Origin: a virus | Lineage: Duplodnaviria > Heunggongvirae > Uroviricota > Caudoviricetes | Strand: one strand, 5' to 3' | Length of the DNA stretch: 4,736 nucleotides | IMG/VR virus record: IMGVR_UViG_2671180846_000003 | Coordinates: 1 to 4,736 of that record | Shown here: positions 343 through 1,331 of the stretch, one piece after another | Numbering within the stretch: the first letter of the stretch is position 1 | Layout: each line of letters begins with the position of its first letter | Notes under the pieces: generated by a model | What the model saw: the letters and a program-made list of their open reading frames with translations, nothing else | What the model was told of the DNA's origin: nothing | Database searches by the model: none | Translations under genes and position numbers: made by a program

Positions 343-948
343 ATGAGCAAAGAATTTTACGCAAGACTGGCAGCTATTCAGGAGAATCTGAACGCGCCAA
401 AGAATCAGTACAACTCATTCGGCAAATATAAATACAGAAGCTGCGAAGATATTCTTGAAGGCGTTAAGCCGTTACTGAATGGCCTGTTTTTATCAATCAG
501 CGATGAAGTTGTGTTGATTGGTGATCGGTATTATGTGAAAGCCACGGCAACTATTACCGATGGCGAAAACAGTCATACGGCAACCGCTCTTGCACGAGAG
601 GAAGAAAGCAAGAAAGGAATGGATTCTGCACAAGTTACGGGAGCTACAAGCTCTTATGCACGCAAGTATTGCCTCAATGGTTTATTCGGCATTGATGATG
701 CGAAAGATGCAGATACCGACGAGCATAAACATCAGCAGAACGCAGCAGCAAAGCAATCAAAACCATCACCTACACCTGAACAGGTTCTAAAAGCATTCAC
801 TGACGCAGCAATGCAGAAAAACACCGTAGAAGAGCTTAAACAGGCGTTCGCCAAAGCGTGGAAGATGCTCGAAGGCACACCGGAGCAGCACAAAGCGCAG
901 GACGTTTACAACATCAGACGAGACGAATTAGAAGGAGCTGCTGCTTAA
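343..948 (+). CDS. erf: Erf-family single-strand annealing protein (essential recombination function), 201 aa
   Basis: Translation from ATG 343 (MSKEFYARLAAIQENLNAPKNQYNSFGKYKYRSCEDILEGVKPLL...GATSSYARKYCLNGLFGIDDAKD...) matches what I recall of the P22 Erf N-terminal domain. The track's 313 start is a TTG 10 codons upstream with no SD; the first ATG at 343 is preferred. TAA at 946-948. Confidence 0.85.
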   Translation: MSKEFYARLAAIQENLNAPKNQYNSFGKYKYRSCEDILEGVKPLLNGLFLSISDEVVLIGDRYYVKATATITDGENSHTATALAREEESKKGMDSAQVTGATSSYARKYCLNGLFGIDDAKDADTDEHKHQQNAAAKQSKPSPTPEQVLKAFTDAAMQKNTVEELKQAFAKAWKMLEGTPEQHKAQDVYNIRRDELEGAAA

Positions 949-1331
949 TGGCACATTCGATTACTGTAAGACTAAACAAGCCCGCAAGAGAGTTTCAGGC
1001 CGGGGAAAATATCGGATTCAACATCCGTGCTGGCGTTCAGTATTACGATCGCCAGACAAAAAAGAAAGAATGGACAAACTACAGCGCCGTTGTATTTGCC
1101 AAGCCGGGAGCGCAAGCGGATTACTACCGTAGTGTTCTTGTTGAAGGTGGCATTGTGGAAATTACCGGAGAAAACATCAGGGTTGATGTTTATCAGGGGC
1201 AAAATGGTCAATCAATCACTCTTGAATTACTGAATGCAAAGATTGGATTTGCAGCTTCAGGAAATGGCCCGCAGCAGCAAAGTAGTAACCAGCAGAACAC
1301 TCCTGTATACGACGATTCCATCCCATTCTGA
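948..1331 (+). CDS. ssb: Compact phage single-stranded DNA-binding protein (OB fold plus short Q-rich linker plus acidic tip), 127 aa
   Basis: ATG at 948 overlaps the erf stop (TAATG), with SD GAAGGAG at 930-936. The body has an SSB-like pattern (YSAVVFAKPGAQADYYRSVLVEGGIVEITGENIRVDVYQ...) and ends in GNGPQQQSSNQQNTPVYDDSIPF, resembling the bacterial SSB C-terminal tip DDDIPF. The track's 858 start lies inside erf and is rejected. Confidence 0.8.
   Translation: MAHSITVRLNKPAREFQAGENIGFNIRAGVQYYDRQTKKKEWTNYSAVVFAKPGAQADYYRSVLVEGGIVEITGENIRVDVYQGQNGQSITLELLNAKIGFAASGNGPQQQSSNQQNTPVYDDSIPF

Follow-up and report, generated by a model that had tools for sequence, protein, structure and literature searches.

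In a survey of 325 lambdoid phages (Genome Res 2025, PMC12315714), gp40 of phage HK97 was named "SSB-1b", a type of single-stranded DNA (ssDNA)-binding protein (SSB), from its AlphaFold 3 fold, and was placed in an "HK75" class of modules that combine anti-RecBCD, SSB and annealase functions with no nuclease. According to the main text of that survey, where an acidic tip is not discussed, the sequences of the family are barely or not at all recognisable as similar to those of SSBs. Another phage SSB has been taken further at the bench: the six C-terminal residues of the HK620 SSB, NDYPPF, are needed to load and stimulate the annealase Sak4 (PMC5928155), which establishes that phage SSBs with host-like tails can serve an adjacent annealase. 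Here we describe an SSB-1b gene, ssb, in a stretch of 4,736 nucleotides (the window; positions 1 to 4,736 of the IMG/VR record IMGVR_UViG_2671180846_000003), for which the original prediction had proposed a minimal phage SSB of 127 amino acids (aa) with an oligonucleotide/oligosaccharide-binding (OB)-like core, a short Q-rich linker and a host-type acidic tip, coupled to the annealase gene erf and likely to determine sensitivity to phage defence. Profile alignments and structure prediction indicate that the encoded protein, although strongly diverged, truly belongs to the bacterial SSB lineage, and that it falls below the thresholds of curated families.

The window protein and HK97 gp40 are 94.5% identical over 127 aa, share the same predicted SSB-like fold and occupy the same slot between erf and abc2. 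They differ in their ends, since the deposited gp40 has the tail DDSNPILI and the window protein an intact DDSIPF, the majority form. Both this identity and the position of ssb between annealase and anti-RecBCD genes, as in at least 80 related loci, assign the gene to SSB-1b. The family had thus already been predicted (PMC12315714), it is common in Escherichia coli, and there is nothing conceptually new in its existence; what the profile methods used here add is that they recover a homology to SSBs that the survey regards as scarcely recognisable.

The ssb reading frame runs on the + strand from ATG 948 to TGA 1329-1331 and yields exactly the 127-aa product that had been proposed. The erf stop codon and the ssb ATG have one base in common (TAATG, 946-950), and the same 1-nucleotide (nt) overlap was found in 81 of the 82 related loci that carry both genes, in line with the proposed coupling to Erf. 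We also considered a 157-aa reading from GTG 858, which would overlap erf out of frame, and rejected it because every homolog begins at the equivalent of ATG 948, with MAHS or MSHT. In P22 it is abc1 that fills this slot; it too overlaps the erf stop by 1 nt and precedes abc2, at a slightly different spacing.

Fold and homology of the ssb product

The AlphaFold2 (AF2) model of the protein, built on an alignment of 56 relatives, has a predicted local distance difference test score (pLDDT) of 86, with residues 1-103 mostly above 90. These residues form a beta-barrel with a single helix (residues 55-63), followed by a segment, residues 107-120, whose pLDDT of less than 50 marks it as disordered. 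The predicted model has an OB fold of the SSB/PriB type: in a Foldseek comparison with the PDB, the top 50 matches were all bacterial, mitochondrial or apicoplast SSBs, or PriB. The alternative OB fold of gp2.5, with its long alpha-1 helix, was not seen, and no gp2.5-type protein was among the fold matches listed.

Scanned on its own against Pfam and NCBIfam, the protein yielded nothing usable, and its sequence found nothing relevant in the PDB. Homology at the level of sequence became visible only once profiles were used, first of 56 relatives and later of 111. The broad SSB family phrog_44 of PHROG was matched at 2.9e-27. When aligned to E. coli SSB with hhalign, the family profile of 56 close relatives gave 87%, and a profile of 111 diverse representatives gave a probability of 96.6% (E 6.7e-10, 84 columns). 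A search of the PDB with the 111-member profile using hmmsearch recovered Klebsiella pneumoniae SSB (9.7e-7), Rim1 (1.6e-4) and E. coli SSB (5.4e-3), and nine of the 111 representatives matched PF00436 directly, the best at 2e-6. The proposed alignment to SSB profiles fails for the single protein against the curated Pfam and TIGR00621 models and succeeds for the family profile with hhalign and hmmsearch.

In E. coli SSB, residues W40, W54, F60 and W88 stack on ssDNA. The hhalign alignment pairs them with Y32, W42, F50 and Y82 of the window protein, and this quartet is strongly conserved among 56 family members, in which position 32 is Y in 55 and H in one, position 42 is W in 55 and Y in one, position 50 is F in all 56, and position 82 is Y in 45 and F in 11. 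The isoelectric points of core and tail (8.96 and 4.05) are also close to those of E. coli SSB (8.26 and 4.05).

The family is widespread. We found 318 homologs at E<=1e-3 in a set of 5.8 billion proteins, and an exhaustive profile search of 1.84 billion proteins recovered 216 cluster representatives; none of the 120 homologs listed carried a precomputed Pfam domain. Of 5426 complete E. coli genomes, 579 (~11%) carry the gene, Shiga toxin (Stx)-converting prophages being among its locations; in these genomes its RefSeq label is always "hypothetical protein", beside an "ERF family protein". Relatives extend to a Yersinia phage (65% identity, E 3e-42) and to Vibrio phages (~50% identity, E about 1e-30 to 1e-31). 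The order annealase (Erf or Rad52) then SSB-1b recurs in Vibrio phage K75, Yersinia phage 21.09 and metagenomic phage contigs, and more distant members follow a YqaJ-type exonuclease (loci L144, L168, L118 and L133) or Sipho_Gp157 (L095 and L102); some members of the family lie in modules that lack abc2. SSB-1b thus goes with recombination modules generally, and in the Vibrio and Enterobacterales branches its partner is usually Erf.

The SSB tip and the C-terminal domain of Erf

Beyond the barrel, the protein consists of a disordered linker, residues 105-117 of which read GNGPQQQSSNQQN, and an acidic tip of the (D/E)-x-IPF kind, DDSIPF at residues 122-127. Linkers of the family are hypervariable, ranging from 20 to 81 aa with ~30% Q and 13% P, and the tail of the enterobacterial clade to which the window belongs lies near the short end of the family range. 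The D-D-x-IPF tip is kept despite this variation. The commonest hexamer among 109 full-length close homologs is DDSIPF, and their C-termini include 66 IPF, 13 PPF and three VPF; most of the 120 full-length representatives of 50%-identity clusters close with a run of acidic residues and then IPF or LPF, FDDDIPF itself being frequent among them. This family consensus aligns with the end of K. pneumoniae SSB, DFDDDIPF, and the C-terminal docking peptide (SSB-Ct) of E. coli SSB, MDFDDDIPF, compares with PVYDDSIPF in the window protein.

On the evidence of the profiles and the model, the core identification made by the original prediction is correct, as are its OB-like core, its short Q-rich linker and, with YDDSIPF set against FDDDIPF in E. 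coli, its host-type tip. Its description of the protein as minimal fits the linker, given a tail of 24 aa versus 65 aa in E. coli SSB, and not the OB core, which is of normal size.

Natural variants of the tip include changes at its proline (DDSIQF in L097 and DIHF in L104). Some SSB-1b clades have no IPF tip and end instead in ...NFNQPQR, ...NNNRG, ...GHRR or ...APYQG (L084:3021-3503, L085:4001-4522, L092, L125, L129, L131, L134, L167 and L168); the neighbouring Erf or other proteins of these clades also lack the shared C-terminal domain described below. Certain phage SSBs, canonical PF00436 proteins and SSB-1b alike, carry a conserved extension of ~15 aa past the IPF tip, IPF-[AS]-x-[IV]-G-L-[QM]... 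(L088:2133-2600, mEp554_23; P0126, P0156 and P0160), which would abolish the free C-terminal Phe carboxylate that is normally essential for SSB-Ct recognition.

The Erf protein encoded upstream proved to have a distinct C-terminal domain. AF2 predicts its last 60 residues as a three-helix bundle (helices at residues 4-17, 21-34 and 40-59 of the domain). A module of ~55 aa with 10 positions invariant in eight sequences, F11, K43 and R51 among them, and with Trp at position 32 in six of the eight, is common to Erf, Rad52/22, AAA_24/Sak4 and RecT annealases, whose cores are unrelated: it is attached to an Erf core (PF04404) in the window, P22, mEp554 and Vibrio phage K75, to a Rad52/22 core (PF04098) in Yersinia phage 21.09, to an AAA_24/Sak4 core (PF13479) in Erwinia phage Eho59, and to a RecT core (PF03837) in Enterobacter phage Tyrion and Salmonella phage SPN1S (module loci L002:2822-2998, L089:2486-2665, L090:2495-2674, L091:2495-2674 and L087:1936-2115). 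A profile census in the 5.8-billion-protein set gave only 24 matches, short (39-104 aa) and in many cases annotated as partial, and the architectures were taken instead from tblastn against phage genomes. The genes beside annealases that bear the module encode SSB-1b, canonical SSB, Abc1, a RecE-like exonuclease or nothing recognisable, and the hosts named in the examined records are all Enterobacterales or Vibrio.

The Erf domain resembles a portable module for interaction with a partner. Host SSB is recognised by Red-beta and RecT at its final 7-9 residues, in the case of Red-beta through a three-helix C-terminal domain, and by analogy the Erf domain could be an SSB-Ct docking module. An hhalign comparison of the Erf domain with that of Red-beta gave a probability of 0.1%, and a PDB profile search with the Erf domain returned only spurious colicin matches. 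We also scored 80 non-redundant SSB/annealase pairs for the SSB tip and the annealase domain. Annealases with the domain lie beside a tip-bearing SSB in 43 cases and beside a tip-less one in three, the latter being recent point or frameshift mutants. All SSBs that lack the tip at the level of a clade have neighbours without the domain, and tip-bearing SSBs have such neighbours in 13 cases. Since these classes follow phylogeny, the counts are not independent evidence, and the joint loss of tip and domain is suggestive, with phylogeny as a confounder. We put forward only tentatively, and as a somewhat doubtful proposal, that the domain might be a portable adaptor that docks on the SSB-Ct (D-D-x-IPF) and has been grafted onto Erf, Rad52/Sak, Sak4/AAA_24 and RecT cores. 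If so, the SSB-1b tip and the domain would make up a self-contained pair for handing ssDNA from SSB to annealase, usable with either phage or host SSB; such an adaptor would explain the free shuffling of recombination modules, and could provide a transferable cassette of an annealase plus a matched SSB for recombineering in new hosts.

Readings of ssb function

The reading we prefer, to which we assign a probability of roughly 0.8, is that the window gene is an offshoot of the bacterial SSB lineage (HK97 gp40, SSB-1b), expressed from the early-left operon, that serves the recombination module arf-erf-ssb-abc2. The fold, the SSB homology, the conserved aromatics, the linker-tip architecture and membership of a recombination module are direct computational observations; from them we infer ssDNA binding, the oligomeric state and the partner or partners of the tip. 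P22 Abc2 modifies RecBCD. In the mechanism that we envisage, RecBCD modified by Abc2 would generate ssDNA at the ends of phage DNA, and the OB core would coat this ssDNA through its aromatics Y32, W42, F50 and Y82. The short flexible linker would then display the C-terminal YDDSIPF, a putative copy of the SSB-Ct docking motif of the host, and the tip would bring the cognate annealase Erf, and possibly host SSB-binding proteins too, to the coated ssDNA.

Several observations weigh against this account. A Pfam scan with the single protein matched zero families at E<=1, and TIGR00621 (NCBIfam) gave E 0.069 and 13.5 bits, compared with a cutoff of 53.95. SSB-1b proteins have not been studied experimentally (PMC12315714). 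In many relatives, including P22, Erf works without a phage SSB, and some tip-less SSB-1b clades still adjoin Erf, so that adjacency to Erf does not depend on the tip. As deposited, HK97 gp40 itself lacks the tip through a 1-nt insertion, a frameshift seen in one of 77 related loci: at the equivalent of window 1311-1331 the deposited sequence (L001:3450-3839) reads GATTCCAATCCC where the window has GATTCCATCCC, one extra A that turns the tip into DDSNPILI. Either the type member of SSB-1b contains a sequencing error here, or a laboratory strain has lost its tip; if the insertion is real, the tip would be dispensable for laboratory growth.

The tip could instead be directed mainly at the host, as the original prediction had it. 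Docking onto the host SSB interactome, or competing for it, is plausible from the sequence, in that the tip is very close to the host motif, with the final Phe, the Pro and the run of acidic residues all preserved. The protein would then act as a decoy or hijacker that competes for the SSB-Ct binders ExoI, RecQ, RecO, PriA and chi rather than loading Erf; in this way phage recombination intermediates could be shielded from 3'-5' exonucleases, or host repair and restart factors drawn to phage DNA. A host-directed partner would fit the retention of the tip in the 13 lineages whose neighbour is not an Erf with the shared C-terminal domain, and in a family member with no recognisable annealase next door (L086), which cautions against a simple pairing of tip and Erf. 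Against this, the gene is embedded in an annealase module and translationally coupled to erf, the tail of the nearest experimental precedent, the HK620 SSB, serves a phage annealase, and HK97 grows with a tip that is destroyed in its deposited sequence. We consider such competition unlikely to be the main function, although it is compatible with service to the recombination module.

A role in replication, in which the protein would coat the ssDNA of lagging strands or rolling circles and would lie in a recombination module incidentally, would be in keeping with the many phage SSBs that are replication proteins (T7 gp2.5, T4 gp32), and an OB core with a tip is compatible with contacts to the host replisome parts chi and PriA. 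Among the loci examined, however, the gene was never in a replication module and instead adjoined Erf, Rad52, a YqaJ exonuclease or Gp157. Moreover, 177 of 246 lambdoid phages of Enterobacteriales with recombination modules have no SSB gene at all (PMC12315714), which argues that it does not meet a core replication need and makes this role improbable. Even less probable, to the point of being very hard to sustain, is that the protein is an analogue of Abc1 that modulates RecBCD together with Abc2 rather than binding DNA. It sits in exactly the slot of P22 abc1, with the same overlap on the erf stop and before abc2, but P22 Abc1 is an unrelated protein of 94 aa that resembles helix-turn-helix (HTH)/sigma-70 region-4 domains, and the aromatic quartet and SSB-type tail of the window protein argue for genuine ssDNA binding; as noted above, family members also occur in modules without abc2. 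A search for Abc1 as a diverged relative found no blastp match at E<=10, and Abc1 matches sigma-70 region 4 and HTH models, the window protein none.

The proposal that the protein is chiefly a trigger of Retron-Eco8, DARNA, Hachiman or AbpAB, and hence a likely determinant of defence sensitivity, did not hold up well. For Retron-Eco8, DARNA, Hachiman, ShosTA and AbpAB, phage SSBs are on record as triggers or as escape loci, but the documented triggers are SSBs of the gp2.5, gp32 or T5 types: gp2.5-type SSBs (T7, SECphi4) have been shown to trigger Retron-Eco8, and DARNA responds to the SSBs of T7, T4 and T5. E. coli SSB, which represents the structural class of the window protein, activates neither Retron-Eco8 nor DARNA, neither system requires the acidic tail of T7 SSB, and a literature search found no mention of HK97 or gp40 as a trigger. 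In both fold and tail the window protein resembles the host SSB, which triggers neither system, and the extrapolation is therefore unsupported; the idea is weak, and we give it little credence. It is at the same time narrowed in a useful way, since a host-like SSB belongs to the class to which Retron-Eco8 and DARNA do not respond.

The main value of the assignment lies in annotation and in a lead towards Erf-SSB pairs for recombineering. With no Pfam model and a RefSeq entry of "hypothetical protein" at present, a firm SSB assignment would improve the annotation of lambdoid recombination modules. The compatibility of SSB tails limits the transfer of annealases between hosts, and a 127-aa protein with an E. 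coli-type tip would be a compact candidate partner for Erf-based recombineering.

Gene order and comparison with known systems

The window corresponds to a lambdoid prophage's early-left (pL) operon. Over 4.7 kb it shares 99% identity with the Stx1a-converting phages LC744178/9, and it is related in a mosaic fashion to HK97, HK022, HK633, Sf101 and CUS-3. Genes on the + strand follow the order arf-like, erf, ssb, abc2 and then genes of the ea region, including Ead/Ea22, DUF551 and DUF4752 (features of the module are listed in Table 1). The position of the arf-like gene matches those of P22 arf and HK97p32/33, and the Erf protein is 100% identical to HK97 Erf and 74.6% identical to P22 Erf. In 78 of 80 loci abc2 starts 27 nt past the last sense codon of ssb. 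No promoter-like or terminator-like sites were found between erf, ssb and abc2, nor an excess of them in the window, and an Rfam scan of the window gave zero family matches.

Table 1. Positions of the recombination-module features within the window.
Feature	Position	Strand	Evidence
arf-like small gene (accessory recombination function), upstream of erf	68..241	+	phrog_2123 'recombinase', E 2.5e-41
erf, Erf-family single-strand annealing protein, 201 aa	343..948	+	PF04404 ERF 2.1e-44 (residues 5-143); phrog_155 2e-57
C-terminal domain of Erf, residues 142-201, three-helix module	766..945	+	AF2 pLDDT 94.7
GAAGGAG, Shine-Dalgarno-like, for ssb, within the end of erf	931..937	+	read from the sequence; 10 nt before ATG 948
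TAATG, overlap of erf stop and ssb start	946..950	+	sequence; putative translational coupling
OB-fold core of the SSB-1b protein, residues 1-103 (predicted ssDNA-binding)	948..1256	+	AF2, profiles
Disordered Q/N/S/P-rich linker, residues 104-121	1257..1310	+	pLDDT <50 for residues 107-120
SSB-Ct-type acidic tip DDSIPF, residues 122-127, and stop codon	1311..1331	+	family consensus FDDDIPF
abc2, anti-RecBCD, last gene of the recombination module	1355..1648	+	PF11043 Anti-RecBCD_p2 5.6e-63; phrog_656

Three features downstream of the module deserve mention for annotation. The homolog of the HK97 DUF2737 gene, right after abc2 (window 1659-1823), has an in-frame TAA at codon 29 (1743-1745) that shortens its product from 54 to 28 aa, and the rest remains in frame and conserved. 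For the Ead/Ea22-like gene (2371-3072), GTG 2404 is the most likely start rather than ATG 2371, because it has GGAGG upstream, its GTGA overlaps the stop of the preceding phrog_614 gene (1820-2407), and the Pfam match does not start until residue 13 of the long open reading frame (ORF). On the - strand, a 170-aa ORF (4212-4724) lies antisense to the DUF551 and DUF4752 genes and is probably a spurious shadow ORF.

Set beside systems that have been described previously, the window protein resembles bacterial SSB (PF00436/TIGR00621) in its OB fold, four aromatic positions, basic core, disordered linker and acidic tip ending in IPF. It differs from E. coli SSB in that the two are only ~15% identical, with Tyr for Trp at two stacking positions, and in its failure to pass the curated Pfam and TIGRFAM thresholds; its gene belongs to a phage recombination module, whereas E. 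coli ssb is an essential replication gene. The canonical phage SSB-1 proteins (ES18, Sf6 and mEp554 types) are likewise encoded beside an annealase gene and have the motif DFDDDIPF, as in mEp554, where Erf is followed by a PF00436 SSB, but they pass PF00436 (7.3e-24) and the window protein does not. T7 gp2.5 and the SECphi4 SSB, too, are OB-fold SSBs of phages and have a terminal Phe on an acidic tail; they differ in belonging to another OB subtype, which has a long alpha-1 helix, and in having an annealing activity of their own. P22 Abc1 has an identical genomic slot and erf-stop overlap, with an unrelated sequence and an HTH-like signature. The HK620 SSB (HkaK, "SSB-2") is again encoded directly after an annealase gene and before abc2, in what was formerly called the "abc1" slot. 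It is of another SSB sequence type, reported to be non-homologous to bacterial SSB, its partner is the RecA-like Sak4 rather than Erf, and it has been tested experimentally, whereas gp40 is known from prediction. By analogy of position and tail, the HK620 SSB is the best functional model for the window gene.

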